Source of the DNA: Patescibacteria group bacterium
GTDB lineage: Bacteria; Patescibacteriota; Minisyncoccia; Phycocordibacterales; UBA918
Direction: 5' to 3'
Assembly: GCA_040386275.1 (NCBI GenBank)
Contig: JAZKFU010000002.1
Coordinates: 16,858 to 80,857, forward strand
DNA: 64,000 nt
The position numbers were made by a program, and so were the translations under genes. The notes below the pieces were generated by a model that did no database searches, was not told the origin of the DNA, and saw only the letters and a program-made list of their open reading frames with translations. Positions 3,478 to 57,981 of the stretch are shown here, piece by piece (position 1 is the first letter of the stretch; each line of letters begins with the position of its first letter).

Positions 3478-3553
3478 GTCCGTGTGCCTGGACTCGAACC
3501 AGGGACCACAGAGGTATAAGCTCTGCGCTCTAACCAACTGAGCTACACACGGA
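3478..3553 (-). tRNA. tRNA-Ile, anticodon UAU (reads AUA)
   Basis: Reverse complement folds as a cloverleaf. Acceptor TCCGTGT/ACACGGA, anticodon stem CAGAG/CTCTG, loop CTTATAC (U33, A37), T-arm CCTGG-TTCGAGT-CCAGG, no encoded CCA. Confidence 0.7.
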
Positions 3554-15945: not shown

Positions 15946-16242
15946 CAAATACCAAAACCCAAACAAAGCCTAAGCTTTGTTTGGGTTTTGTTGTATTTGC
16001 GCGAGAAGAGAGGATTCGAAAAGGTTGCCAGCTATTTTGCAAAAATAGCGACTGTCAATTGAGCGAGCGTTATAAAAATTTATTTTTATAACCGAGTGAA
16101 AGCAGACAGAAAGCTCTGCTTACAACCTATACTGGTCTGTAAGCAGAGCTTTCTTTCACTGCATTCGCAACATAAATAAAAGTAAATTTTTTATTTAGTT
16201 ACTCATTTGTGAAAGTAACAACCGAATCCTCTCTTCTCCGCG
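15946..16242 (+). repeat. tRNA-3'-end composite repeat unit (subfamily 1) downstream of tRNA-Ser(GCU)
   Basis: T1 hairpin AAAACCCAAACAAAGC-CTAA-GCTTTGTTTGGGTTTT (15954-15989). Inverted tRNA 3' copy GCGCGAGAAGAGAGGATTCGAA (15999-16020). Core AAGGTTGCCAGCTATTTTGCAAAAATAGCGACTG plus long hairpin AGAAAGCTCTGCTTACA / TGTAAGCAGAGCTTTCT. Direct copy CCGAATCCTCTCTTCTCCGC (16222-16242). Confidence 0.6.
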
Positions 16243-16293
16243 TTTGAACCACCTCCTGGTGGTTATTTTCTTACGGGGGAATACGCAAGTAAA

Positions 16294-18709: not shown

Positions 18710-18796
18710 GGAGGATTGGCCGAGTGGCTGAAGGCAGCGGTTTACTAAACCGCCAGAGGGTAAAACTTCTCGTGAGTTCGAATCTCACATCCTCCG
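18710..18796 (+). tRNA. Type-II tRNA, Ser-like, with anticodon loop TTACTAA (apparent anticodon ACU)
   Basis: Acceptor GGAGGAT/ATCCTCC, Ser-like D-arm GCCGAGTGGCTGAAGGC, anticodon stem GCGGT/ACCGC, 18-nt variable arm, T-arm GTGAG-TTCGAAT-CTCAC, discriminator G. Confidence 0.65.
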
Positions 18797-18957
18797 CACA
18801 TACCAAAACCCAAACAAAGCTTAGGCTTTGTTTGGGTTTTGTTGTATGCGCGCGAAGATGTGAGATTCGAAGCCCGATTGAGATATTTTGGAGCGTAGCG
18901 AACATAAATATCCAATTGGGGTACTGATCATGTAAGGTTCGAATCTCACATCCTCCG
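18797..18957 (+). repeat. tRNA-3'-end composite repeat unit SerL-1 (subfamily 2)
   Basis: T1 hairpin 18805-18840, nearly identical to the unit at 15954. Inverted copy GCGCGCGAAGATGTGAGATTCGAA (18848-18871). Core contains GGAGCGTAGCGAA. Direct copy GGTTCGAATCTCACATCCTCCG (18936-18957). Confidence 0.6.
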
Positions 18958-19158
18958 CCCGTATAAAATACCGCCTGTAAGGGCGGTTATTTTATTGGGC
19001 GGAGGATGAGCGAGTGACTAATGTCACTCGCGGTGAGATTCGAAAGACGGAAGCATGTCGCTCTGCGACAGCTGAGTCGGGGTCGAGAGTACTTACTAGA
19101 ATCAGAGCGTAGCGAATGATTATAGTTAGTAACTCGTGACCGAATCTCACATCCTCCG
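18958..19158 (+). repeat. tRNA-3'-end composite repeat unit SerL-2 (subfamily 2), in tandem
   Basis: Hairpin AAAATACCGCC-TGTAA-GGGCGGTTATTTT. Inverted copy GGGCGGAGGATG-[AGCGAGTGACTAATGTCACTCGC]-GGTGAGATTCGAA (18997-19044). Core AGACGGAAGCATGTCGCTCTGCGACAG...GTCGGGGTCGAGA plus GAGCGTAGCGAA. Direct copy CCGAATCTCACATCCTCCG (19140-19158). Confidence 0.6.
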
Positions 19159-19196
19159 CCCGCATAATCATCAATAAATTTGATATAATTAAAAAC

Positions 19197-19523
19197 ATGT
19201 CAATAGAAAAATTAAACCATAGCAGTCAAAATGAAAGTGACTTTGAGCAAAGAATGCAGGTTGAATACATCTCTCATATAATCGATAGTTTGATTAAAAT
19301 TGAAGTTTCAGTAACTGACCTCGAAGACAGGGATCATTTAAAAGATGTTCTGTCACAATCTCGATACGATTATGAGGAGATGCCTGAATCTCATATGGAT
19401 GAAAGTGAATTAGCGAAAGAAAAAGAGGCCTTACATGCGCTTGCTGAATTGGTGGGTAACCCTGAATTATCAAATGACCAAAGGGAAGAACTAATTAAGC
19501 AGAGACTTTCAAGCTGGTTCTAA
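19197..19523 (+). CDS. Hypothetical acidic protein, 108 aa, carried inside the tandem repeat array
   Basis: ORF flanked by direct copies of the tRNA 3' end. Acidic and helical, with no known motif. Confidence 0.45.
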   Translation: MSIEKLNHSSQNESDFEQRMQVEYISHIIDSLIKIEVSVTDLEDRDHLKDVLSQSRYDYEEMPESHMDESELAKEKEALHALAELVGNPELSNDQREELIKQRLSSWF

Positions 19524-19544
19524 CATCGTCCCATAACGCCCGCA

Positions 19545-19770
19545 AATACCAAAACCCAAACAAAGCCTAAGCTTTGTTTGGGTTTTGTTGTATGTGCGCG
19601 AGGATGTGAGATTCGAAAGGCACAGGCATGTTTTTACTCTTCCTAAAGTAAAAACAGCGGGAGAAACAGTGTCTAAACACTGTTTCTCGGGTAGCGAACA
19701 CTTAGTAGAATCTGCACGCAGTGCAAGATTATACTTAGTGATTCGTGAACGAATCTCACATCCGTGTACC
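19545..19770 (+). repeat. tRNA-3'-end composite repeat unit SerL-3 (subfamily 2)
   Basis: Remnant CGCCCGCAAATACC, then T1 hairpin 19551-19586 identical to 15954-15989. Inverted copy GTGCGCGAGGATGTGAGATTCGAA (19594-19617). Core has GGGTAGCGAACACTTAGTAGA...TTAGTGATTCGTGA. Degenerate direct copy ACGAATCTCACATCC (19749-19763). Confidence 0.55.
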
Positions 19771-36473: not shown

Positions 36474-36690
36474 GGGTTCCGGAATCGAGTCACGAATCAC
36501 TAAGTATATTATTTCGCTACGCTCATAATCTACTAAGTGTTCTTGACCACACCTCGCGGTTTTCTTTTCTGGTAAAAAGAAAACATCGCTGCGGTCGTTC
36601 GATTCCGCCGAAAGCAAAGCAGTTTGCTTTCTGAACTCCGCAACAAAAACGTAAAACCTCTGTCAATAAAGACAGAGGTTTTACGTAATG
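36474..36690 (-). repeat. tRNA-3'-end composite repeat unit (subfamily 2) downstream of initiator-like tRNA-Met, minus orientation
   Basis: In tRNA orientation: hairpin AAAACCTCTGTC-TTTATT-GACAGAGGTTTT; inverted copy TTGCGG-[AGTTCAGAAAGCAAACTGCTTTGCTTTC]-GGCGGAATCGAA; core with GAGCGTAGCGAA...TTAGTGATTCGTGA; direct copy CTCGATTCCGGAACCC (plus 36474-36489). Confidence 0.55.
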
Positions 36691-37542: not shown

Positions 37543-37694
37543 TTGATAGAGTGCTATATTAGTGGTATTCTGTTGCCACTTTTCTCTAGGTTAATGCTAG
37601 AGAAAATTGTATCCAGGGCGTATCGGTGTAAGCAAAGCTTTCACCGACTGCGTTCGAAGAAAATGTAAGCGAGCTTCCATTTTGCTTCTCACTT

Positions 37695-37768
37695 GTCGGT
37701 GTAGCTCAGCTGGTTAGAGCGTAGCACTCATAACGCTAAGGTCGGAGGTTCGAGCCCCCCCATCGACA
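37695..37768 (+). tRNA. tRNA-Met (CAU), elongator-like
   Basis: Acceptor GTCGGTG/CATCGAC (one GU), anticodon loop CTCATAA, T-loop TTCGAGC. Carries an A31-C39 mismatch and a T-stem mismatch, so it is somewhat degenerate. Confidence 0.6.
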
Positions 37769-37919: not shown

Positions 37920-38084
37920 CAAATGAAAGAGCCCTTCGGGGCTTTTTCGTTTACGCGAGCGAAAGAAAGCGCCTGCGCGCTTTCTGGTGGGATTCGAAAG
38001 CCGGAGTCATGTCGCCCTGCGACAGACGAGACGGGGTCGCGAAAATTTCTGAAAGAAATTATTTGTGACCGAATCCCATCGCTC
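37920..38084 (+). repeat. tRNA-3'-end composite repeat unit (subfamily 2) downstream of tRNA-Asp
   Basis: Hairpin AAAGAGCCC-TTCG-GGGCTTTTT. Inverted copy CGCGAGCG-[AAAGAAAGCGCCTGCGCGCTTTCTGGT]-GGGATTCGAA (37954-37998). Core AGCCGGAGTCATGTCGCCCTGCGACAGACGAGACGGGGTCGCGA. Direct copy CCGAATCCCATCGCTC (38069-38084). Confidence 0.6.
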
Positions 38085-38126
38085 CCACTCCTTCAAACAT
38101 CATCCCCCATCTGCTACACTACCCCC

Positions 38127-41645: not shown

Positions 41646-42518
41646 ATGGTAAATCCAGCACAACGTATTGCCGAAATCGAAAGCGCTATGCTCGCGAATG
41701 ATTTTTGGCAGAACCCCGCCAAAGCTCAGGCGATGATTAAAGAACTGCAGGAACTAAAAGATACAGCTGATGGTAAAGGAAAATTTGATCGTAATAACGC
41801 GATTATGACTATTGTTGCCGGAGCCGGTGGGGACGATGCTGAAGATTTTGCGCGGATGCTCCGGGACATGTATCAAAAATATGCCGTTAGTCGCGGGTGG
41901 GGAGTGCTCGAAGTTGATAGTAACCAAAATGATAACGGTGGCTACCGTAACCTAACGCTCGAGATTCAAGGAAAAAATGCGTATGGAACGTTGCGTGTTG
42001 AATCAGGAGTTCATCGACTGGTGCGCATCTCGCCTTTTAATAGTAACGGTAAACGGCAAACCTCATTTGTCCTGATTGAAGTATCGCCACAAATTGAAGA
42101 TGTCTCTGCAGTAGCCATTCCCGATGAGGACATCGAAGTGACCTTTGCTCGTTCCGGTGGGGCTGGTGGGCAAAATGTTAATAAGCGAGAGACTGCAGTG
42201 CGGATGACACATATTCCCACAAATATTTCTGTTCACGTATCAACGGAACGTTCTCAGCAACAAAATCGAGAGTTAGCCTTGAAATTATTGGCAGGAAAAC
42301 TTTTTTCTTTTGAAGAAGCCCAACGTGCCCGTGAGCTTGCAGGGCTCTCAATAGAGAAGTCAGTTAAAATTGAATGGGGGAGTCAGATTCGTTCGTATGT
42401 TCTGCATCCGTATCAATTGGTCAAAGATCACCGTACCAATGTGGAAATACGTAACATATCTCCCATTTTAGAAGGTGATATACAGGTCTTCCTAGACGCG
42501 CACCCTCAGGTAGCGTAA
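41646..42518 (+). CDS. prfB: Peptide chain release factor 2 (short form, no frameshift site seen)
   Basis: 'SPF' tripeptide anticodon motif, GGQ motif ([10 protein letters not shown]), 290 aa. No CUU-UGA frameshift context upstream. Confidence 0.85.
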
Positions 42519-43223: not shown

Positions 43224-44126
43224 ATGGTAACAAGCTTGAGAAGAATATTTAAAGCGGGGTTTGTAGGGTTTTGGCGCAATGCCTACGTTTCTCTGGCATC
43301 TATTTTTGTGATCACCGTCGCGTTATTTGTGATTGGTTCAACCATGCTGATTGACCAACTCCTCGGGGCTTCACTCGCCCAGCTCCAAGCTAAAGTTGAT
43401 ATTAACGTCTATTTCGTTCCATCAGCTCCGCAGGAAGAAATTGATACCTTAATAAATTCCGTTAAAGCCTTACCTGACGTAGAGCGCGTAACCTACACCT
43501 CACGTGATGATGCCTTGGCTGAGTACCGAGCTAAAAATCAAAATGACAGCGTCGCTATGCAGGCGCTTGATGAACTGCGTGAGAATCCATTAGGAGCGAC
43601 TATTGCGGTACAAGCTAAAGAGACCTCACAGTACGAAAATATCAACCGCTATCTTGAAGAGCAAAAGAATCCGATTATTGATGAAATCAACTACACGAAA
43701 AACAAAGAATCAATTGGAAAATTAAGTTCTATTATTGGAGCAGTTGAACAAGCCAGTTTTGTAGCCTTGATGGTCTTGATTATGGCCTCAGTGTTGATTA
43801 CGTTTAACACCATTCGGTTGGCTATCTTTACCGCCAAAGAAGAAATTTCCGTCATGCGATTGGTAGGGGCAAGTAATATGTATATTCGTGGTCCGTTTAT
43901 GTTGCAAGGAGTAATGTACGGTGTCGTATCAGGAGTAATAGCGCTCGCTATCTTGTACCCGATTGTATTGTGGCTTGGTCCTAAAACAGCAGAATTCTTT
44001 GAGATAAATATCTTTGATTACTTTGTTAACAATTTTGCCTATATCTTCTTAGTGCTCGTAGGAATTGGTGTTACCTTGGGATTGGTCTCAAGTGTACTCG
44101 CCATTACCCGTTATCTTCGCGTTTAA
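43224..44126 (+). CDS. ftsX: Cell division permease FtsX
   Basis: 300 aa with 4 TM helices and periplasmic loop. Immediately downstream of ftsE. Confidence 0.8.
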   Translation: MVTSLRRIFKAGFVGFWRNAYVSLASIFVITVALFVIGSTMLIDQLLGASLAQLQAKVDINVYFVPSAPQEEIDTLINSVKALPDVERVTYTSRDDALAEYRAKNQNDSVAMQALDELRENPLGATIAVQAKETSQYENINRYLEEQKNPIIDEINYTKNKESIGKLSSIIGAVEQASFVALMVLIMASVLITFNTIRLAIFTAKEEISVMRLVGASNMYIRGPFMLQGVMYGVVSGVIALAILYPIVLWLGPKTAEFFEINIFDYFVNNFAYIFLVLVGIGVTLGLVSSVLAITRYLRV

Positions 44127-44128
44127 GT

Positions 44129-45820
44129 ATGTCCAAAAAAACCTCACTACCTGTCAAGAAAAAATCTCTCACTGACACGGTAGCTTCCACCCCCAAATAT
44201 ATATTTGTGGTCGGTGGTGTAATGAGTGGAGTGGGCAAAGGGATTACCTCTTCGTCTATTGCACTCATTTTACAATCACGTGGCCTTACTGTCACCGCCC
44301 TTAAAGTTGATCCGTACATCAATGTGGATGCTGGTACCATGAACCCCACCGAACACGGTGAGTGTTTTGTACTTAATGATGGTTTAGAAACTGATCAAGA
44401 CATGGGTAACTACGAACGTTTTTTAAATGTAGATTTACCGAGTATTAACTACATGACGACCGGTAGTGTCTACCAGTCGGTAATTCAAAAAGAACGTAAC
44501 CTCGAGTACAAAGGTAAGACAGTGGAAGTAGTGCCGGATATCCCCCTAGAAGTAATTTCTCGCATCAAAAAAGCCTCCGCCCAAGCCCAGGCTGACGTCA
44601 CGTTAATTGAAGTGGGAGGAACGGTGGGTGAATACCAAAACGTATTGTTTTTGGAAGCGATTCGAATGATGAAAGGAGAGACGCCTGACGATATAGCGGT
44701 CGTGATGGTGAGCTACTTACCGGTGCCGGGTAGTATTGGAGAAATGAAAACCAAGCCTACCCAAACAGCGGTGCGGACTTTAAATAACGCGGGAGTATTT
44801 GCAGATGTCATTATCGCCCGTTCGCCAGTAGGGGTTGATGTAAAACGGAAAGAAAAAATCTCTCGGTTCTGTAACGTAAAGATGGAGAATGTTATTTCTG
44901 CGCCTGACGTGCCGAGTATTTACGATATCCCGCTTAACTTTGAAAAGGACAATCTTTCTACTCGCTTGTGTGATTTATTGAAAATTGGGAAATGTAAACC
45001 AACTGATCTTAAGGCCTGGAAACAATTTGTCGCGCATAGTAAAAATGGTAAAGACACAGTTAAAATTGCTGTGGTTGGTAAATATCTCACGTCAGGGGAC
45101 TTTGTGTTATCAGACGTCTATATTTCAGTAATTGAAGCCATAAAATATTCCACCTATAAACTCGGTCTAAAACCAATTATCGAATACCGGTCATCACTTG
45201 AGTTTGAAGATGGTAAAAAATTAGCTGATCTTAAAAAGTATGATGGAGTGCTGGTACCGGGAGGATTTGGTAAAACAGGCGTAGAAGGCAAGTTGCGGGT
45301 GATTGAGTATGTACGAAAAAACAACATACCGTATTTCGGAATTTGTTACGGTATGCAGTTGGCTGTCCTAGAATACGCCCGTAATATACTAAAGTTAAAA
45401 GACGCCAGTACCGAAGAAATTAATCCTAAAGCCACGGACTTAGTGGTCGGTATTATGCCCGAACAACGTGAAAATATTGCCCGGTCAGATATGGGTGGAA
45501 CGATGCGGCTCGGTGCCTACACCGCGCGACTAACGCCAAAATCCCAAGCCGCGCTCGCCTATAAAACTTCCGAAATCACCGAACGCCACCGCCATCGGTA
45601 CGAAATTAATCCGGACTACGTAGAGCGATTAGAAACGGCCGGTATGGTGTTTTCGGGAAAGTCTTCAGACAAACGATTGATGGAAATTGTCGAACTTCCA
45701 AAAACAGTCCACCCATTTTTCGTAGCTACTCAGTTTCATCCGGAATTAATCGCCCGTCCTCTCAGGCCGCACCCCCTCTTCACGGCGTTTGTTAAGAGTT
45801 CATATGAATCAAAGAAGTAA
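44129..45820 (+). CDS. pyrG: CTP synthase
   Basis: 563 aa with synthetase domain plus class-I glutamine amidotransferase domain (GICYGMQ, catalytic Cys). Confidence 0.9.
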   Translation: MSKKTSLPVKKKSLTDTVASTPKYIFVVGGVMSGVGKGITSSSIALILQSRGLTVTALKVDPYINVDAGTMNPTEHGECFVLNDGLETDQDMGNYERFLNVDLPSINYMTTGSVYQSVIQKERNLEYKGKTVEVVPDIPLEVISRIKKASAQAQADVTLIEVGGTVGEYQNVLFLEAIRMMKGETPDDIAVVMVSYLPVPGSIGEMKTKPTQTAVRTLNNAGVFADVIIARSPVGVDVKRKEKISRFCNVKMENVISAPDVPSIYDIPLNFEKDNLSTRLCDLLKIGKCKPTDLKAWKQFVAHSKNGKDTVKIAVVGKYLTSGDFVLSDVYISVIEAIKYSTYKLGLKPIIEYRSSLEFEDGKKLADLKKYDGVLVPGGFGKTGVEGKLRVIEYVRKNNIPYFGICYGMQLAVLEYARNILKLKDASTEEINPKATDLVVGIMPEQRENIARSDMGGTMRLGAYTARLTPKSQAALAYKTSEITERHRHRYEINPDYVERLETAGMVFSGKSSDKRLMEIVELPKTVHPFFVATQFHPELIARPLRPHPLFTAFVKSSYESKK

Positions 45821-45859
45821 ATCAAGTATACTTAATTAATTACCTTTAAATTTTAAAAT

Positions 45860-46150
45860 ATGCATCAAGGAAATTGGACCTGTAGTACCTGCGGGGGAGC
45901 GATTACGCAACTACCGTTTGAACCCCGAAGCAACAGTGGCTTAACCTGTAGTGCTTGTTTTGCTAAAAGCCGGAATACCTCTGCTCCTACTGAAGGAGAA
46001 TCCTCAGACACTCCCGCTGGAGAAAAACCAAAAGTAGCCGGCAGTTGGACGTGCAGTGGTTGCGGCGCTCCCATCACGAGCCTCCCCTTCACCCCAAGAG
46101 ACACCTCAAACCTAAAGTGCCTAGACTGTTTCAAAAAAAGCAAAGCCTAG
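45860..46150 (+). CDS. Tandem double zinc-ribbon small protein, 96 aa
   Basis: Two repeats of 'W(T)CSxCGxxITxLPFxPR-x6-LxCxxCFxKS', giving 4 CxxC pairs. Confidence 0.5.
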   Translation: MHQGNWTCSTCGGAITQLPFEPRSNSGLTCSACFAKSRNTSAPTEGESSDTPAGEKPKVAGSWTCSGCGAPITSLPFTPRDTSNLKCLDCFKKSKA

Positions 46151-46287
46151 CCCGTTTACAGAACCGGTTGAACAAATCCCCAAAATAAGCTACTATTGCC
46201 CAGCAACAACGAGCCGTTAGCGGCTAGGCTTTGATGTCCAATCGTTGGGTGGAGGGGCGGGCGCTCTTGCCCCTTCACTGCAAATTT

Positions 46288-46443
46288 TGCCTGATCGTCT
46301 AATGGTAAGCAAAGCTTTCTTGAACGGCACTCAGACAATACATACAAGCAAGCTTTAATGTAAGTCTTCGTTTGTTCAAGTAGGACTCTGGTTTTTGGTA
46401 CCAGCTATTGAGGAAAGAATTCTAAGAATTCGAGTCTCATAGG
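46288..46443 (+). pseudogene. Degraded duplicate of tRNA-Gln interrupted in the D-loop by a 74-nt insertion
   Basis: TGCCTGATCGTCTAATGGTA matches the tRNA-Gln 5' part. After the 46308-46381 insertion, AGGACTCTGGTTTTTGGTACCAGCTATTG continues (anticodon arm intact), but the T-arm and acceptor 3' strand are divergent (GAATTCTAAGAATTCGAGTCTCATAGG). Confidence 0.45.
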
Positions 46444-46456
46444 AAACTAAATTAAT

Positions 46457-46527
46457 TGCCTGATCGTCTAATGGTAGGACTCTGGTTTTTGGTACCAGCT
46501 ATTGGGGTTCGAGTCCCTGTCAGGCAG
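46457..46527 (+). tRNA. tRNA-Gln, anticodon UUG
   Basis: Acceptor TGCCTGA/TCAGGCA, anticodon stem CTGGT/ACCAG, loop TTTTGGT, T-loop TTCGAGT, discriminator G, no CCA. Confidence 0.8.
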
Positions 46528-46763
46528 CGAGTAGAAAAGACATCCCTCGGGATGTTTTTTCGTATCGCTGCCTGACAGGCGCAGCTTTCTGAAAGAAAGC
46601 GTCTGCGCGGACTCGAAAAGGTTGCCAGCTATTTTGAAAAAATAGCGACTGATAATTGAATGAGTGAAATGAAAATTTATTTTCATTTCCGAGTGAATGC
46701 AATCAGGAAGCTTTGCTTACAACCTGTACTGAAGCTGTAAGCTTCGAGTCCCTGTCAGGCAGC
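46528..46763 (+). repeat. tRNA-3'-end composite repeat unit (subfamily 1) downstream of tRNA-Gln
   Basis: Hairpin AAAAGACATCCC-TCGG-GATGTTTTTT. Inverted copy CGCTGCCTGACAGG-[CGCAGCTTTCTGAAAGAAAGCGTCTGCGC]-GGACTCGAA (46566-46617). Core AAGGTTGCCAGCTATTTTGAAAAAATAGCGACTG...GAGTGAA...GCTTACAACCTGTACTGAAGCTGTAAGC shares about 85% with the unit at 16021-16160. Direct copy TTCGAGTCCCTGTCAGGCAGC (46743-46763). Confidence 0.6.
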
Positions 46764-46836
46764 AAAATATTGACAATAAAATTTATTATTGTATTATCAA
46801 ATTTAAATAGCTCATTAAATCTTAGAGGAGGTGCTA

Positions 46837-47448
46837 ATGACACGTTCAACTATTGCCCGGATCAATGCGATCTGGGGTCTGCTGGGTGGAGATGAGGTTG
46901 TTGACCAAATTCTTTCTGGGAAGAAGGTGGTGCGGGTTGAAAATTCATACATCAGCTCTGATTCTCAACAGGCACAGCTTCCCAAGCACCAAATCAACAC
47001 CCAGGAGTTCTATGCTCAGCAGGGATGGTTGAATGTAAGGTCAGATTTGAAAGAGTTGCTAAATACTGGGTTGCTCGGTTCCAATGTAATGGTTGAAAGT
47101 ACAGCATTCCATTATCTTGACCTTAATGAGCCAAAAACAGGTCATCAGATTTTAGAACATATTTCTCCGAAGGGTGTGTTTAGAAATCCAGTGAACTTCT
47201 TTGCGTACTTATCAATACTGATCAGTGCGCAGCGCATGTTTCCTCTCCAGGAAGTTTTGGCAGATGAAGGTTTAGCAAGTATCTTTTTTGTTCATCATAA
47301 TGGTGTCGAGTACGCAGTCGTTGCTTATGTTGGAGACTCCAATCATGTGGATGAATTGACAGAATGCAACCTCGAGTGGAATTGTACCCTCTACGATCTT
47401 GGGGAAGAGTTTGGTGTCGGAGACAGAGTTTTTTATCAGACTCACTGA
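46837..47448 (+). CDS. Hypothetical protein, 203 aa
   Basis: GAGGAGG SD 6 nt upstream of ATG. No recognised domain. Lies immediately distal to the tRNA-Gln repeat unit. Confidence 0.5.
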   Translation: MTRSTIARINAIWGLLGGDEVVDQILSGKKVVRVENSYISSDSQQAQLPKHQINTQEFYAQQGWLNVRSDLKELLNTGLLGSNVMVESTAFHYLDLNEPKTGHQILEHISPKGVFRNPVNFFAYLSILISAQRMFPLQEVLADEGLASIFFVHHNGVEYAVVAYVGDSNHVDELTECNLEWNCTLYDLGEEFGVGDRVFYQTH

Positions 47449-47606
47449 GCGGCATTTAAGCTCACAGGAACAGGCCACGGCCAGATTTCTGTGGGCTGTT
47501 TTTGTGTATAAGTTCTAACATTGTCCCATACAGCCAGCACAATAAGTAATTTGTCCAATATTACGCCTTAGTGTAGGGGAAAATAAGACCGGGTCACGAT
47601 TGCGTC

Positions 47607-48407
47607 ATGGTACCATCAGTTCACATGAATTCCTCAAGTATAACCTTACCTACTACCATTGATGAAGTGATTGCGCATTTAGATGCTATCGTATTAACGT
47701 GTGAAGCTACGGGTTGTCGGATGGGTTATTTCCCCGCAATGTACAATCGGGTCACGAGACAAGTTAAGCAGCGCATCCTCGAAGGGTCTTTTGAAGATAA
47801 CGAACGCATGGAGCGGTTTGATGTTATTTTTGCTAACCGGTACTTAGTCGCGTACTATGCGTACGCCCAAAATAAGCCGTGTTCTGAATCGTGGAAAATA
47901 ACGTTTGAGGCGTCTAAAAAATGGAGCCCAATGGTGATTCAGCATTTGATTGCCAGTATGAATGCACACATTTGTTTAGATCTGGGTATATCAGCGGCAG
48001 AAACCGAAACACACAATTTACTGTCACTAAAAAATGACTTTGATCAGGTTAATGACATATTAGATTCACTGATTGAAGAAGTTGAAGCAGAACTTCGAGA
48101 AATATTTCATCCACTGACAACCTTTGATAAAATAACGGGAAACTCATATTGGCCCATTGCTCATCTGGGCATTATCAAATCTCGTACTGATGCTTGGCAT
48201 GTAGCTGAAGCATACGCCCAACTACAAACAGATAAAGAACGACAAATATTCATTCAGTTGCGTGATCATCACGTGGCGGTGATTGGAAAGAGGATTCTGC
48301 AACCGCCTAAACTGGTACGACTGCTGGTCGGAAAGGTGCGTGATTTTGAGAAAGGTACGGTTGCGGATAAAGTACACATTATGAATCGGAAAATTGTTCG
48401 CAACTAA
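47607..48407 (+). CDS. Hypothetical protein, 266 aa
   Basis: ORF only. Predicted helical with no recognised motif. Confidence 0.5.
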   Translation: MVPSVHMNSSSITLPTTIDEVIAHLDAIVLTCEATGCRMGYFPAMYNRVTRQVKQRILEGSFEDNERMERFDVIFANRYLVAYYAYAQNKPCSESWKITFEASKKWSPMVIQHLIASMNAHICLDLGISAAETETHNLLSLKNDFDQVNDILDSLIEEVEAELREIFHPLTTFDKITGNSYWPIAHLGIIKSRTDAWHVAEAYAQLQTDKERQIFIQLRDHHVAVIGKRILQPPKLVRLLVGKVRDFEKGTVADKVHIMNRKIVRN

Positions 48408-48517
48408 CGTGCGTTCTTAAAGGGGAGAGAGGGTTGGTGGGAAATGACAAGAGTATATCCTAATACCATACAGAGTTGTTTTCGTTATAGTAGCCATACT
48501 GTGCTACTATAAAAAAT

Positions 48518-48949
48518 ATGAAAAAGATTATTGTAATTATTATCGGAATCCTAGTTTTGCTCGGTGGTTACTATGCCTATATATACTGGGCTTTAGGAAA
48601 TGATAGTGTCTCTCATACCAATCAAGACACGAGTGTGAAGTTTGATTATTTAGAAGGACTTGAACCGGAAGTGTATAAAACAGTTGATGCTCAAACTGGT
48701 GGCGTGTGGGATAAAAAACTCACTCTTACTGCCATTGAAGTGTCACAAAATGCGGCGTACGGCACTTGGATAGCCAATGACGCGTGGACTTGGATTGCCT
48801 GGAAGGGGACTGGTCAGCAATGGAAGACCCTTGTAAGTTTAGACGGGTTTGATTGCGAAGCATTACAAACAGTCCCGACAGAATACTCAGACTTTTTTTA
48901 CGACAGTACTCATGTAAATGGAGAGCAGTATTGTTATACTCATGAATAG
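48518..48949 (+). CDS. Hypothetical membrane-anchored/secreted protein, 143 aa
   Basis: N-terminal TM/signal 'MKKIIVIIIGILVLLGG', Trp-rich extracytoplasmic domain. Followed by terminator AAAAACAACCGCC-TGCTA-GGCGGTTGTTTTTTT (approx 48990-49025). Confidence 0.5.
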   Translation: MKKIIVIIIGILVLLGGYYAYIYWALGNDSVSHTNQDTSVKFDYLEGLEPEVYKTVDAQTGGVWDKKLTLTAIEVSQNAAYGTWIANDAWTWIAWKGTGQQWKTLVSLDGFDCEALQTVPTEYSDFFYDSTHVNGEQYCYTHE

Positions 48950-49048
48950 AAACTGTTTCTACTAAAGAAAGGGAAGAGATACCACATCAAAATCTATACA
49001 AAAACAACCGCCTGCTAGGCGGTTGTTTTTTTAATGCTTAAAGGAAAA

Positions 49049-49597
49049 CTATTTCACACTTTTCCAGTACATCTGTTCTTTGAGGAGTATCATCACTTCT
49101 TTGAGTATATCCATGATGGTGGTAGAGATTTGGTTGATGCGATCTGTTTTATTGAACGGAATAACCTCGCCGACAATTTCTTTGTCTTTCAGTTGTTTTT
49201 TAATCTCGGGCATTAGGTTGCTATCAAGATCAAGACGTTGGGTGACTTGGTACTTACCGTTATGGTCGCGGGTGGCAATATAGACACTCTCGGTGTTATT
49301 ACCTTTGGGCCCACTGTTACACAGGTACCCCCAGTTTTCGTGTTTTGGGTGATAGACCATAACCTTGCCTTCAACGTAGCCTTGATAGGCAGTATTCACC
49401 GTTAATGCTTCGGCAGTGTATTCTGGGGTTTCAATCGTACTGTCAGTTTTGGCAACAAAAATGACAGTCTCTTCATTACCGATGACGCTATTAATGTACA
49501 TGTCAGTTGGGAGGCAACTCAGGGCGTGGGCTGGGCCTGAAGAAACACTAAAGACCATTAGCACAAATAAAGGAATTATAAATAAGGCTTTTTTCAT
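49049..49597 (-). CDS. Hypothetical secreted protein, 182 aa
   Basis: Start at internal Met giving signal peptide MKKALFIIPLFVLMVFSVSSGPAHA. The upstream extension in the ORF track is likely non-coding. Confidence 0.5.
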   Translation of the reverse strand: MKKALFIIPLFVLMVFSVSSGPAHALSCLPTDMYINSVIGNEETVIFVAKTDSTIETPEYTAEALTVNTAYQGYVEGKVMVYHPKHENWGYLCNSGPKGNNTESVYIATRDHNGKYQVTQRLDLDSNLMPEIKKQLKDKEIVGEVIPFNKTDRINQISTTIMDILKEVMILLKEQMYWKSVK

Positions 49598-49752
49598 ATT
49601 AAAATCTAAACTTGATAAATTTGGATACAATATAGACGACCGAAATCTAGAGGTCTTACGCTTTATATTCAAATAAAGATAAGTATGCAACAGGACTGCA
49701 ACTTCAGAGGCTAGCGATTGGTTCTATAAGGATAATAAGGTAAACATATTCT

Positions 49753-49932
49753 ATGAAAATTATAAAAATACTCACGGCGATTGTATTGATGGCGTTGGGG
49801 GTCAAGATGGTGATGTTTGGAGAAATGGATGATAGTCCGGGTGCTCAAATGATCGGTTTGTTAATGGTCGTAGCGGGGATATACGTGATTATAAAAACCG
49901 TGCGAAAAAAATTACCGGCACCTCAAAAATAA
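49753..49932 (+). CDS. Possible small membrane protein, 59 aa (below the ORF-track cutoff)
   Basis: ATG at 49753 encodes MKIIKILTAIVLMALGVKMVMFGEMDDSPGAQMIGLLMVVAGIYVIIKTVRKKLPAPQK, with two predicted TM helices. Confidence 0.3.
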   Translation: MKIIKILTAIVLMALGVKMVMFGEMDDSPGAQMIGLLMVVAGIYVIIKTVRKKLPAPQK

Positions 49933-49972
49933 TACAATATCCTAGACTGGTAAAATTATATATAATGAAAGA

Positions 49973-51082
49973 ATGGATGGATCAAAAATTTTACGCATCG
50001 GTGTTTTAGGTGTGCTCATGGTGGTGGGTGTGTACGTGCTGTACATTACTCAGACCACTGGTCAGTCAAATTCTTTTAGCGTGAGTGGTGAGGCTGGCTT
50101 TGAGTCAGAGCCGACCACTCAGGATATAACCGCACTACGTATTGGCAAAGGGCAAAATTACACACTTGATGAGTTGCACACGTATACACGCGAGCCTGGA
50201 CCATGGCGGGTTGGGTTACAAACCGGTCATTTAGATAATGCGGTGATGCCTGAGGAGCTACAAAATCTCGAAGGGAATACAGGAGCTTCATATAGAGATT
50301 TGGAGGAACAAGAAGTGATGGTAGAAATTGTGAACCGCACGGCTCAGAAATTAGAAGCTAGAGGTGTAATTGTTGATCTGTTGCCGGCCACGGTTCCGAA
50401 AGGTTATAAGGCGGATGCCTTTGTTTCCGTGCATGCTGATGGTAATAAAAACACAAATATCAATGGTTTTAAAATCGCTGGTCCACGAATTGATTTTTCG
50501 GGTCGAGCACACGTGCTTAGCAATGCTCTGTACGCTTCATACGAACAAGCTACGGGGTTATCCAAAGATACTTCTATCACCGGTGGTATGACGGCGTACT
50601 ATGCGTTTAACTGGCCTCGGTATGAACATACCGTACATCCACATACTCCGTCGGTAATTGTCGAGACCGGTTTCTTAACGAGTCCTATTGACCGAGCGGT
50701 GATTGTAGATAATCCAGAACAAGCAGCGATTGGTATTAGTGATGGCATTTGGGCTTTTTTACAAGATACAAATTCATACCCTATACCGCAGATTGTAGTA
50801 CCAACCCTTCCGGTAACGGGAGAAGTAGTGTGTGCGCCCTTACGGGCCGAACGACGTGCCAGTTCTCGTATCTACGATTGTCTCCCCAGTATCGCGAGTA
50901 AGGAGGGATTGTATGTGGCCTTATATGGAGTGGGCAGTACTTCACCCCTAGTAGGGCAAACGATAACGGCTCAGGGCAACTATATGCCGGCGCAAATGTT
51001 AGAGAGCTATCTTTGGTTCCCGTACGAGGTGGTAGGGACAGTAATGGATCCTGCATACATTGAATCGGTACCAATTCAGTAA
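49973..51082 (+). CDS. N-acetylmuramoyl-L-alanine amidase (Amidase_3-like), membrane-anchored
   Basis: N-terminal TM, then 'AFVSVHADGN' zinc-binding motif context typical of MurNAc-LAA. Confidence 0.6.
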   Translation: MDGSKILRIGVLGVLMVVGVYVLYITQTTGQSNSFSVSGEAGFESEPTTQDITALRIGKGQNYTLDELHTYTREPGPWRVGLQTGHLDNAVMPEELQNLEGNTGASYRDLEEQEVMVEIVNRTAQKLEARGVIVDLLPATVPKGYKADAFVSVHADGNKNTNINGFKIAGPRIDFSGRAHVLSNALYASYEQATGLSKDTSITGGMTAYYAFNWPRYEHTVHPHTPSVIVETGFLTSPIDRAVIVDNPEQAAIGISDGIWAFLQDTNSYPIPQIVVPTLPVTGEVVCAPLRAERRASSRIYDCLPSIASKEGLYVALYGVGSTSPLVGQTITAQGNYMPAQMLESYLWFPYEVVGTVMDPAYIESVPIQ

Positions 51083-56638: not shown

Positions 56639-56718
56639 ATATTTTTATAATATTCATTATAAAAAAAATAGTAATCCACATTACCCATCGGGTGTGGAGT
56701 GCGGTATACTGTAGGTAT

Positions 56719-57981
56719 ATGAACAGGTATACACAAAGTAATAGTGGCTTTACAGCCAAAGCGGCATTATTAACAGCAGTAATTGCAGGATCTTTATTTT
56801 TTATTAGTACTAGCGCCAGTGCGGCAACGGTTTGTACGTTTGAACGTGATTTGCAAATGGGTGTTGTGGGCGAAGATGTGCGATGTTTGCAACAATATCT
56901 TAATGCCAATGGGTTTGTTATTACTATCACGGGCGGAGGATCACCCGGAAAGGAAACGACTGAGTTTAAAACCTTAACTGAAGCAGCGTTAATTAAATGG
57001 CAACAAGCCAATAAATTGTCTCCGGCAAGTGGATATTTTGGACCTCGATCACAGGCTGTATACGCTACACTGGTAAACGATACTACGGTAACTACGCCAG
57101 TAGCGACTACTACCACTCCTACGACTGGCGGCATTCTTTCACCAGCTGATCTTTTGAAAAAAGTGGAAGAATTAAAAACACAGTTGTCGGGCAGTATTGT
57201 CAGTACTCCAGCTCCAACCACTCCTACCACACCAGCATCTACGGTGAGTTCTGGTGGTGCCAAGCTTCTTAAAGAAATTACAAAGTCACTTCGTGAAGCC
57301 GAAGAAGAAGTGAGTGATAATGATGATGCGGAAGATTACGAAGATGCAATTGATAGTCTCACCGACGCACGTGATAATTTCTACACAGCGGTTCTCGCGT
57401 TTCTTTCTGGTGATGAGGACGAAGCTGAGGATGCTTTAAACGAAGTGGAAGATAGTGTTGAAGACGCTCTTGATGCAGTTGGTGCTTCAAGTGAAGCTAA
57501 TGAAGCCGAAGATTTAATTGATGAAGTTGATGATGCTATTGATGAAGCGGAAGATGAAATAGAAGAAGCAGACGCTGATGGTAAAGCCACCAGTGAAGCC
57601 GAAGACATATTAGATGAAGCGAGTGACGTATTAGATGAAGCTAAAACTGCGTTGGAGGATGAAGACTATGACGATGCGCTTGATCTAGCAGAAGAAGCCG
57701 AAGATTTAGTGAATGATGCCATTGACGCTATTGGATCAAATGGTGGTGATGTTGAAGATGAATTAGATGACGCTCGAAATGAATTAGACGATGTACGAGA
57801 AGACGTGGATGCGGCCGAAGATGATGGCGAAGATATGGAAGATGCACAAGAGTATTTAGATGAGGCGGAAGATTTATTGGATGATGCGGAAGAGGCTCTC
57901 GATAATGATGATGAGGATGAAGCGGAAGAGTTGATTGAGGAGGCTTTGGACCTAATCGCCGACGCTTCAGACGAACTTTAG
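56719..57981 (+). CDS. Secreted peptidoglycan-binding-domain protein with Thr/Pro linker and about 250-aa acidic (D/E/A) repeat tail
   Basis: Signal peptide ...STSASA-ATV. PG_binding_1-like 'LQMGVVGEDVRCLQQYLNANGF'. Long run of '(D/E)-A-E-D' helical repeats. Confidence 0.6.
   Translation: MNRYTQSNSGFTAKAALLTAVIAGSLFFISTSASAATVCTFERDLQMGVVGEDVRCLQQYLNANGFVITITGGGSPGKETTEFKTLTEAALIKWQQANKLSPASGYFGPRSQAVYATLVNDTTVTTPVATTTTPTTGGILSPADLLKKVEELKTQLSGSIVSTPAPTTPTTPASTVSSGGAKLLKEITKSLREAEEEVSDNDDAEDYEDAIDSLTDARDNFYTAVLAFLSGDEDEAEDALNEVEDSVEDALDAVGASSEANEAEDLIDEVDDAIDEAEDEIEEADADGKATSEAEDILDEASDVLDEAKTALEDEDYDDALDLAEEAEDLVNDAIDAIGSNGGDVEDELDDARNELDDVREDVDAAEDDGEDMEDAQEYLDEAEDLLDDAEEALDNDDEDEAEELIEEALDLIADASDEL

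Follow-up and report, generated by a model that had tools for sequence, protein, structure and literature searches.

Two families of small, putatively mobile elements at tRNA gene ends around a disrupted tRNA-Gln copy in a Patescibacteria genome

Introduction

Insertion sequences of the IS200/IS605 family, together with their derivatives that lack open reading frames (ORFs) and are known as palindrome-associated transposable elements, are moved as single strands by the Y1 HUH transposase TnpA. In this 'peel and paste' transposition the target is reportedly chosen by a short guide inside the element. Integrative elements that target tRNA genes are said to fall into classes by the sublocation they use, and in the attC sites of integrons and the attP site of the CTX phage the sense and antisense parts of a folded single strand rebuild a duplex site whose symmetry is broken by a side hairpin or bulges. 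Here we describe a tRNA-Gln locus (positions 46288–46763) in a 64,000-nucleotide stretch of a Patescibacteria group bacterium genome (assembly GCA_040386275.1, contig JAZKFU010000002.1, positions 16,858 to 80,857), hereafter the window. The locus consists of a disrupted tRNA-Gln copy, an intact tRNA-Gln gene and a repeat unit that follows its 3′ end, and it exposes two families of small folded elements: rods of ~75 nucleotides (nt), which we call GTAAG elements, and 3′ units, which lie behind tRNA genes.

The 3′ units resemble IS200/IS605 elements in having no terminal inverted repeats, asymmetric hairpin ends that are unrelated to each other in sequence, and one strongly structured strand. 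They too would insert directly behind a defined sequence, which stays as the left flank, a related sequence forming the right end, and the choice of target by pairing with element-internal sequence, with which the architecture agrees, would be a further likeness; as with the IS200/IS605 derivatives, they are small, multi-copy and non-autonomous. Unlike in IS200/IS605, there is one complementary stretch of 7–20 nt rather than 4, which fits the flank as well as the right end and follows the left hairpin on its 3′ side; moreover the targets are tRNA gene ends, and no TnpA match was found in the window and 8-kb flanks. With tRNA-targeting integrative elements and cis-mobilisable elements (CIMEs) the units share direct repeats made of the 3′ part of the tRNA from the T-loop on, tandem accretion and the existence of small forms without a recombinase, whereas they measure 140–300 nt instead of kilobases, contain their target in antisense together with a three-helix module that shows covariation, include the right-hand repeat in a copied block, and have a sister family for tRNA 5′ ends. 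By analogy with attC and the CTX attP, the sense and antisense copies of a unit could rebuild a duplex, in this case the T-arm and acceptor end of the tRNA; those systems, however, use IntI or XerCD and target attI or dif, and no recombinase was found for the units.

For archaea, tRNA introns and split tRNAs with small D-loop and T-loop inserts that apparently move between tRNAs have been reported (Fujishima et al. 2010, as related in PMC10714607), and on that second-hand account the inserts studied here are alike in size and in the positions they occupy. They differ in their bacterial host, in giving no tRNA after removal, in having no bulge-helix-bulge at the junctions and in occurring outside tRNAs as well. 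PMC10714607, whose subject is archaeal tRNA introns and the rRNA introns of the Candidate Phyla Radiation (CPR), was the nearest paper found in full-text literature searches, which nowhere returned a description of such elements. Both families are apparently undescribed, and we take them to be tRNA-targeting, non-autonomous mobile DNA. On balance we favour the reading that two tandem tRNA-Gln genes have been colonised by two kinds of small, non-coding, folded mobile elements specialised on tRNA ends.

Results

An intact tRNA-Gln gene and a disrupted copy

The working gene, a tRNA-Gln(UUG) on the plus strand, is placed at 46457–46528 by ARAGORN and at 46457–46527 by the Rfam tRNA model (52.9 bits). 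Its 3′ end, TTCGAGTCCCTGTCAGGCAGC (46508–46528), is repeated without mismatch (21/21) at 46743–46763 (+), where it forms the right end of the 3′ unit. Upstream, TGCCTGATCGTCTAATGGTA (tRNA positions 1–20) occurs at 46288 and again at 46457 (20/20), and GTAGGACTCTGGTTTTTGGTACCAGCTATTG (tRNA positions 18–48) at 46380 and 46474 (31/31). Each of the three sequences has two occurrences in the 64 kb; by our own arithmetic, done without a tool, ~5e-4 exact 21-mer repeats would be expected by chance in a window of this length.

The disrupted copy is made up of four parts, all on the plus strand. An orphan 5′ fragment (46288–46307) is identical to 46457–46476 at 20/20 positions. It runs into a GTAAG element (46305–46382) with the 5′ motif GTAAGCAAAGCTTTC and a rod closed by CTTGAAC (at 46319) and GTTCAAG (at 46374), which scores 93.7 bits (E 8.5e-19) with the family model R2. 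A second tRNA fragment (46380–46413; 33/34 identical to 46474–46507) supplies the 3′ strand of the D-stem, the anticodon arm (UUG), the variable loop and the 5′ strand of the T-stem. Past the anticodon arm, the T-arm and acceptor strand are replaced by AGG-AAA-GAATTCTAAGAATTC (46417–46431)-GAGTCTCATAGG, and the block 46414–46448 is, judged against a counterpart in another genome (L022, below), the remnant of a module linked to the T-arm, comprising AAA, a hairpin of the P3 type (GAATTC-TAA-GAATTC, 46417–46431) and a decayed copy of the tRNA 3′ end, GAGTCTCATAGGAAACT.

An earlier reading of this DNA, the first-pass annotation, had described most of these parts, and its account was borne out for the normal tRNA-Gln(UUG) at 46457–46527, for the perfect 21/21 copy of the tRNA 3′ end in the repeat unit, for the second copy of the 5′ half and anticodon arm, for the inverted ends of the insert and for the replaced T-arm and acceptor. 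The D-loop insert that it reported is likewise present, but not with the given length of 74 nt: 72 nt are unique (46308–46379), with GTA on each side, and 75 nt separate tRNA positions 20 and 21.

Stretches of other genomes, numbered here with the prefix L, were searched together with 8-kb flanks. The flank 5′ of the orphan fragment is homologous to the flank directly before tRNA-Gln in L032, and there is synteny with L030 through an upstream zinc-finger gene, so the orphan fragment marks the ancestral start of a tRNA-Gln gene. A tRNA-Gln 5′ fragment followed by the same GTAAG element, at an identical position, is also present in L030 and L022. The outer tRNA-Gln of L022 is more complete and consists of positions 1–20, the element with a complete tRNA-Gln(CUG) nested in it, positions 21–53, a hairpin and module inside the T-arm, and positions 54–73. 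Its module ends in GGAATTC-GTA-GAATTC-GAGTCCC, the window equivalent being GAATTC-TAA-GAATTC-GAGTCTC, and these arms are seen in no other module copy listed; the match indicates that the odd 3′ end of the window copy is the last hairpin of an otherwise deleted module followed by a decayed tRNA 3′ end. The L022 outer copy has the anticodon AUG on a Gln body, which points to a pseudogene.

On the upstream copy ARAGORN called no tRNA in its default and intron modes, and none after removal of the insert in silico (five splice variants), and Rfam gave no tRNA match at E<=1 on 46288–46448. The relaxed search that the first-pass annotation had proposed added only, at 80% stringency, a weak tRNA-like fold of 87 nt (46363–46449), in which 3/5 T-stem and 6/7 acceptor pairs form and the 5′ strand is taken from the insert; 6/7 acceptor pairs would arise by chance about once in ten times if offsets are allowed, by our estimate, and the fold has no counterpart in L022. 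A functional tRNA gene should give a cloverleaf with paired acceptor and T stems that tRNA models recognise, and with ARAGORN (default and intron modes) and Rfam (E<=1) negative we rejected the copy as a functional tRNA. Bacterial group I introns in tRNA genes are at least 200 nt long, contain the group I core and lie in the anticodon loop. We therefore also rejected a group I intron, the insert being 72–75 nt long, located in the D-loop and without a match to any Rfam intron family at E<=1, as well as an archaeal-type bulge-helix-bulge intron, since the spliced variants give no tRNA and the predicted fold is a rod lacking a bulge-helix-bulge. The functional, intron-containing tRNA that had been named as the alternative thus found no support, and the question whether the insert has copies elsewhere was answered in the affirmative (five R2 copies in the window, and others in L030, L022 and L002).

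As far as its sequence can be read, the upstream copy is a dead tRNA-Gln struck by a small mobile element, neither a footprint of the downstream unit nor an intron-bearing gene. It does not qualify as a footprint of the 3′ unit because insertion of such a unit duplicates only tRNA positions 54–73, because it was struck by a member of a different, ~75-nt family, and because it has a module remnant of its own and holds the ancestral 5′ position.

Several other loci showed 5′-side inserts. In L022 (295–590) the complete tRNA-Gln(CUG) (377–448) lies within the D-loop insert of another tRNA-Gln, and is flanked by a leader/trailer inverted repeat of ~50 nt and a 29-nt direct repeat of the element's 5′ hairpin. 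Upstream of tRNA-Gln in L005 (860–1185) a module variant lies within the 5′ acceptor strand of a tRNA-Gln fragment, and a third kind of 5′-side insert, ~200 nt long with two ~100-nt tandem repeats, follows the D-loop breakpoint. The tRNA-Ser(GCU) of L010 (3269–3386) and the tRNA-Lys(CUU) of L018 (2285–2375) are each preceded by a copy of their own first 17–19 nt (plus a few leader bases in L018), with the break in the D-loop just before or at G18-G19 and an unrelated insert of 75–105 nt following.

The GTAAG element family

GTAAG elements are rods of ~75 nt that start with GTAAGCARAGCTTYC. The five copies found in the window with model R2 lie at 46305–46382 (+), 37628–37703 (+), 16139–16217 (+), 16048–16123 (−) and 46645–46720 (−), the two minus-strand copies being located inside both window modules of the first type. 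Compensatory changes were seen at 16 of the 22 rod pairs over seven copies.

At the 5′ end of tRNA-Met (37628–37703, +; R2 88.4 bits) the closing stem CACCGAC/GTCGGTG is composed of tRNA positions 1–7 and their complement, and the left flank repeats TCGGTGTA. The element at tRNA-Asp in L002 has the same arrangement: at both genes the closing stem corresponds exactly to tRNA positions 1–7, the left flank repeats positions 1–9 (8/9 at tRNA-Met), and it is the element that supplies the 5′ end used by the working tRNA. The remaining elements keep a stem of their own and have only GT or GTA in common with the flank. GT or GTA is found at the left flank and the right end of 8/8 elements, which fits a conserved cleavage site or a duplication of 2–3 nt. 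The stem of the copy in the D-loop is unlike tRNA-Gln, and we read this copy as a probable off-target insertion after GGTA. When metagenomes were scanned for the Gln-type insert, L030 was the one locus returned. GTAAG elements and 3′ units have the same order of parts, with a small hairpin, an antisense stretch, a folded core and a sense copy, and both lie directly 3′ of the matching target.

The 3′ unit and its relatives

The 3′ unit of the intact tRNA-Gln (46529–46763, +) is 235 nt long and contains no ORF. Its left end (46529–46566) is a hairpin of terminator type with its core at 46539–46560 and a stem that reaches into the tRNA 3′ end and the antisense of that end (inverted repeat, 31-nt arms, 87% complementary); a terminator scan reported it on the minus strand only (46555–46540), and the plus-strand terminator, a GACATCCC/GGGATGT stem followed by TTTTT, is our own reading of the letters. 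The antisense of the tRNA 3′ end (46567–46617) comes in two pieces, GCTGCCTGACAGG (46567–46579) and CGGACTCGAA (46608–46617), separated by a UGAAA-loop hairpin (46580–46607), and forms its best duplex with the cognate tRNA end (−26.0 vs −13.7 kcal/mol for the best other). The structured module (46618–46745) is built of the helix P1 (AGGTTG/CAACCT), the hairpin P2, and P3 (GAAGC-TGTAA-GCTTC), which shares the T-loop TTC with the sense copy; covariance model R1 matches 46608–46771 with 56 bits (E 6e-14). A second GTAAG element (46645–46720, −; R2 65.7 bits, E 2.5e-12) is located inside the module between GCGAC and AACCT, and is absent from the listed and aligned module copies of other genomes. 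An earlier description had implied that the right end of the unit is truncated, which the canonical copies of the family rule out: the right end is the canonical GAAGC-TGTAA-GCTTC followed by GAGTCC, and the unit is longer by ~75 nt inside its module.

An exact 19-mer of the module was found in 29 genome stretches, about 20 of which have the full module architecture and are listed as CPR, most of them as Paceibacteria/Paceibacterota, Kaiserbacteria, Saccharibacteria, Parcubacteria or Patescibacteria and a few without classification or with a genus name alone; the remaining matches look like chance occurrences, to judge from their location within unrelated genes. The plan of the unit is constant in the CPR loci and runs from the tRNA through a terminator-type hairpin, the antisense of the acceptor 3′ strand, the antisense of the T-stem 3′ strand and T-loop, and the P1/P2/P3 module to a sense copy from the T-loop on, with a small UGRRA-loop hairpin often following the acceptor antisense. 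Module copies adjoin Gln, Ser, Leu, Arg, Met, Asp, Thr and His tRNAs. In the loci and the window together, 24 of 42 tRNAs are followed by a sense copy of their own 3′ end at a distance of ~145–440 nt (start to start), mostly without an upstream 5′ fragment, and 5/42 are preceded by a copy of their 5′ end. The inner edge of the sense copy always lies in the T-loop, at T54–C56. The acceptor antisense is the best match for its own tRNA in 8 of 20 units, including the Gln unit. We considered whether the antisense could represent the 5′ strands of the acceptor and T-stem of a tandem tRNA that has decayed. This was rejected, since the antisense exactly complements the 3′ strand (CAGG, not TGGGG) and also spans the T-loop, discriminator and trailer.

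Folding of the module is constrained. Among 31 sense copies aligned to model R1, compensatory changes occur at 21/21 pairs and 97% of cells are paired, compared with 39–47% when the partners are slid by 1–3 columns, and 0/500 shuffles reach the observed values. At the base of P3 the most frequent pair is U·G, which identifies the tRNA-sense strand as the one that folds.

Similar repeat units follow five of the eight window tRNAs that are supported by both ARAGORN and Rfam. A sister unit with the same module lies after tRNA-Ser(GCU) (15947–16243, +) and holds the GTAAG elements at 16048–16123 (−) and 16139–16217 (+), the latter in its P3 loop. An array of three units follows tRNA-Ser(ACU) (18798–19763, +), the third having no tRNA-end copy on its left, and units with a second module type follow tRNA-Met (36480–36689, −) and tRNA-Asp (37921–38085, +). 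In the tRNA-Ser(ACU) array an acidic ORF of 108 codons (19197–19523) separates the second unit from the third; it has no Pfam family above the curated cutoff and could be cargo or a chance ORF. The units of the two Ser tRNAs carry the same terminator hairpin (15946–16000, 18797–18854 and 19537–19594; 47 nt, 94% complementary between copies) on different modules, and since the hairpin is thus shared by units with different targets and modules, unit parts are evidently shuffled. Contigs of other assemblies were found to end within 3′ units (L031 1–35 and L021 1–43).

Boundaries of a copied block and presence/absence between genomes

L025 and L027, which lie on one Paceibacterota contig, have a 136-nt block in common with one mismatch. 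The block begins with the last five bases of tRNA-Arg; hairpin, antisense and module follow in this order, and the sense copy TTCGAGTCCCTCC closes it. A tRNA-Arg stands to the left of the block in L025, and in L027 the left flank is unrelated, as are the right flanks of the two. It follows that the mobile block lies after an intact tRNA, whose 3′ end is not replaced, and the proposal of the first-pass annotation that an element had supplied a replacement 3′ end is not supported. Of the two repeats, the block contains the distal one, and the T-loop and T-stem part of the proximal one is missing from it; coming from a single pair, this is moderate evidence against a crossover inside the tRNA. 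The annotation had seen the locus as the footprint of an element inserted into a tRNA; what stands of this is that mobile elements are tied to tRNA ends here and that the tRNA 3′ end is copied perfectly at the end of the unit, and what is not supported is the upstream copy as the footprint of that unit with a new 3′ end.

Orthologous tRNA-Gln loci differ in their units: the locus of L030 (with the upstream zinc-finger gene in common) has no 3′ unit, those of L031 and L032 (orthologous through a downstream ORF) have units of the other module type, and the window has the first type. Such differences argue for mobility over a fixed regulatory structure. Between genomes the element is 72–82% identical, the tRNA 87–93% and the upstream flank 52–60%, and identity above that of the flank indicates that the element is either constrained or recently spread.

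Two orphan 3′ units without a tRNA on their left, from two genomes (window 19515–19540 and L027 ~640–672), have a left flank of ~23 nt in common, GTTCYAACRTCGTCCCATAAC, followed by the last 3–5 nt of the cognate tRNA. In L027 this flank presents GTCCC...TGCAC at the spacing of the real tRNA-Arg end, and by its sequence the flank may be a pseudo-target.

Host context and searches for a carrier

The window is ordinary bacterial chromosome from the CPR, with genes for prfB/RF2, ftsEX, pyrG (CTP synthase), ligA (NAD-ligase), RecQ, MsrA, photolyase and type IV pili. A phage origin was rejected, as a distant DNA search of 44000–50000 against phage records matched only pyrG and the PHROGs matches were housekeeping genes. 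A phage or plasmid as carrier of the module was likewise rejected after two exact module 19-mers gave no match in IMG/VR, and the 67 IMG/VR matches of a 15-mer from the GTAAG motif, none of which has the element architecture, were dismissed as chance. In Rfam 15 neither family was matched, only tRNAs reaching the gathering score; at E<=1, the matches in or near the units besides tRNA were two sub-threshold ones of miRNA models on palindromic hairpins.

Some further features of the window were recorded. The tRNA-Ser at 18710–18797 (Rfam 54 bits), 3 kb from tRNA-Ser(GCU), has the anticodon ACU; A34 is unusual in bacteria except in tRNA-Arg(ACG). A tRNA-Ile with anticodon UAU lies at 3478–3552 (−; Rfam 70.7 bits), and tRNA-Ile(UAU) is a rare bacterial way to read AUA. 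An 81-nt 'tRNA-His(AUG)' called by ARAGORN at 47823–47903, within a DUF5995 ORF (47607–48407) and without Rfam support, is probably a false positive. A release-factor ORF (41646–42518) has PCRF and RF-1 domains; its match to the PCRF profile (194 positions) starts only at position 94, and the N-terminal part therefore seems to be missing, which on sequence grounds would fit the usual +1 frameshift of prfB. The ORF at 56692–57981 contains many degenerate GAAG/GATG-rich repeats and encodes an acidic repeat protein.

Discussion

The reading that we favour, colonisation of two tandem tRNA-Gln genes by two kinds of elements, would account for the locus as follows. The 3′ unit (46529–46763) would have come to sit after the intact tRNA-Gln and would give this tRNA a terminator. 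GTAAG elements would normally insert after tRNA position 9 and bring a replacement for positions 1–9, and an off-target insertion of one after GTA in the D-loop (46305–46382) may have killed the upstream tRNA-Gln copy, which would also have lost most of its own 3′ module by deletion while its 3′ end decayed. Movement would be as single strands: the internal antisense, resembling the guide of IS200/IS605, would select the target by base pairing, the element would join 3′ of it, and a putative enzyme encoded elsewhere and acting in trans would cut and join.

Several observations weigh against this account. The inner edge of the sense copy always lies in the T-loop, which would also follow from a tyrosine integrase crossing over in that loop. 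The presumed guide is 7–20 nt long and lies 3′ of the hairpin, that of IS608 being reportedly 4 nt and 5′ of it, and the acceptor-side antisense is degenerate in about half of 20 units and may not be essential. Among the ~50 window ORFs there is no transposase, integrase or reverse transcriptase by Pfam or PHROGs, and tblastn with TnpA and XerD sequences, a search of low sensitivity, was empty in the window and ~20 loci with their flanks. Neither an excised circle nor an empty site of the same population was seen, and the L025/L027 pair could have arisen by segmental duplication followed by deletion and not by transposition. The covariation counts come from alignments fitted to the models and so lean towards structure, and movement through RNA is indistinguishable from movement as single-stranded DNA on sequence alone.

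If instead an integrative element recombined at the T-loop of tRNA-Gln, by a tyrosine integrase or in a Campbell-type event, and brought a new 3′ end, the units would be integrase-less remnants or cis-mobilisable mini-islands and the upstream fragment part of the footprint. Direct repeats from the T-loop to the tRNA 3′ end are a classic signature of tRNA islands, found here at 21/21 positions and at 24/42 CPR tRNAs, and tandem arrays at one tRNA and the constant T54–C56 edge are as expected. We nevertheless regard this as unlikely, as such an element should carry its repeat fused to the tRNA body, whereas the L025/L027 block has the opposite form, with the right-hand sense copy and without the left T-loop and T-stem. 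Nor does it explain the antisense and the covarying three-helix module, or the copy of positions 1–48, which integration at a 3′ end does not duplicate; and no integrase was found near ~20 loci (again by low-sensitivity tblastn with an XerD sequence) or in the ~50 window ORFs, nor any exact IMG/VR match for two module 19-mers. Still less probable, in our judgement, is that the units are immobile riboregulatory structures conserved in CPR tRNA operons, in which the antisense pairs with either the real tRNA end or a decoy and thereby switches termination or maturation. The sense-antisense-sense order does permit two mutually exclusive pairings, at both tRNA ends, the structural covariation is strong and concerns the tRNA-sense strand, and the unit provides the terminator hairpin of the tRNA. 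Against such a role, units are present, absent or of a different type at orthologous tRNAs of related genomes, copies are found in either orientation, at a distance from tRNAs as well as within other units, identical tandem copies exist, and the antisense lies past the U-run of the terminator and would be transcribed only on read-through.

The two remaining accounts both strike us as very improbable. Two tandem tRNA-Gln copies are plausible, and template switching at hairpins can extend palindromes, so a plain tandem duplication with random decay, the repeats and hairpins being by-products of slippage and palindrome extension at terminators, was considered. It is largely refuted by the family evidence: the decay is uneven, with exact runs of 20 and 31 nt beside sharply bounded foreign blocks, and those blocks belong to multi-copy families that cross genomes and show covariation. 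We give slightly less credence again to a functional upstream copy that loses its D-loop and T-arm inserts at the RNA level, as non-canonical introns or in a split tRNA. Both inserts are closed stem-loop domains in loops, the 5′ fragment and anticodon arm are identical to the working gene, and the outer 5′ fragment and outer 3′ end of L022 keep a compensatory U4:A69 pair. Removal of the D-loop insert leaves no tRNA, however, and Rfam gives no tRNA match on the copy at E<=1; the 3′ end GAGTCTCATAGG is unable to pair with the 5′ strand TGCCTGA, the L022 counterpart combines the anticodon AUG with a Gln body, and the insert family also occurs in non-tRNA places in either orientation. Splicing of such introns is not known from bacteria.

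Returning to colonisation by mobile elements, we tentatively propose, as a possibility that we hold with less than even confidence, that Patescibacteria harbour programmable miniature elements in which a 7–20 nt antisense guide to a tRNA 5′ or 3′ end is combined with a sense copy, which insert beside the paired sequence as single-stranded DNA or through RNA, and which are retargeted by changing the guide and stem. The three-helix module would then be a handle for the enzyme or the catalytic part itself.

This locus is of interest more for the two element families that it exposes than in its own right. For the locus itself, the picture is one of tRNA gene loss, in which a D-loop was struck off-target while the tandem copy kept the function. 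Units stand at roughly half of the tRNA genes in the examined set, and so affect tRNA annotation, pseudogene calls and contig breaks in CPR genomes. The elements are adapted to at least eight tRNA identities, and if the antisense does select the target, they would represent a compact system of natural origin in which a long nucleic-acid guide directs insertion, and a lead towards the enzyme that moves them.

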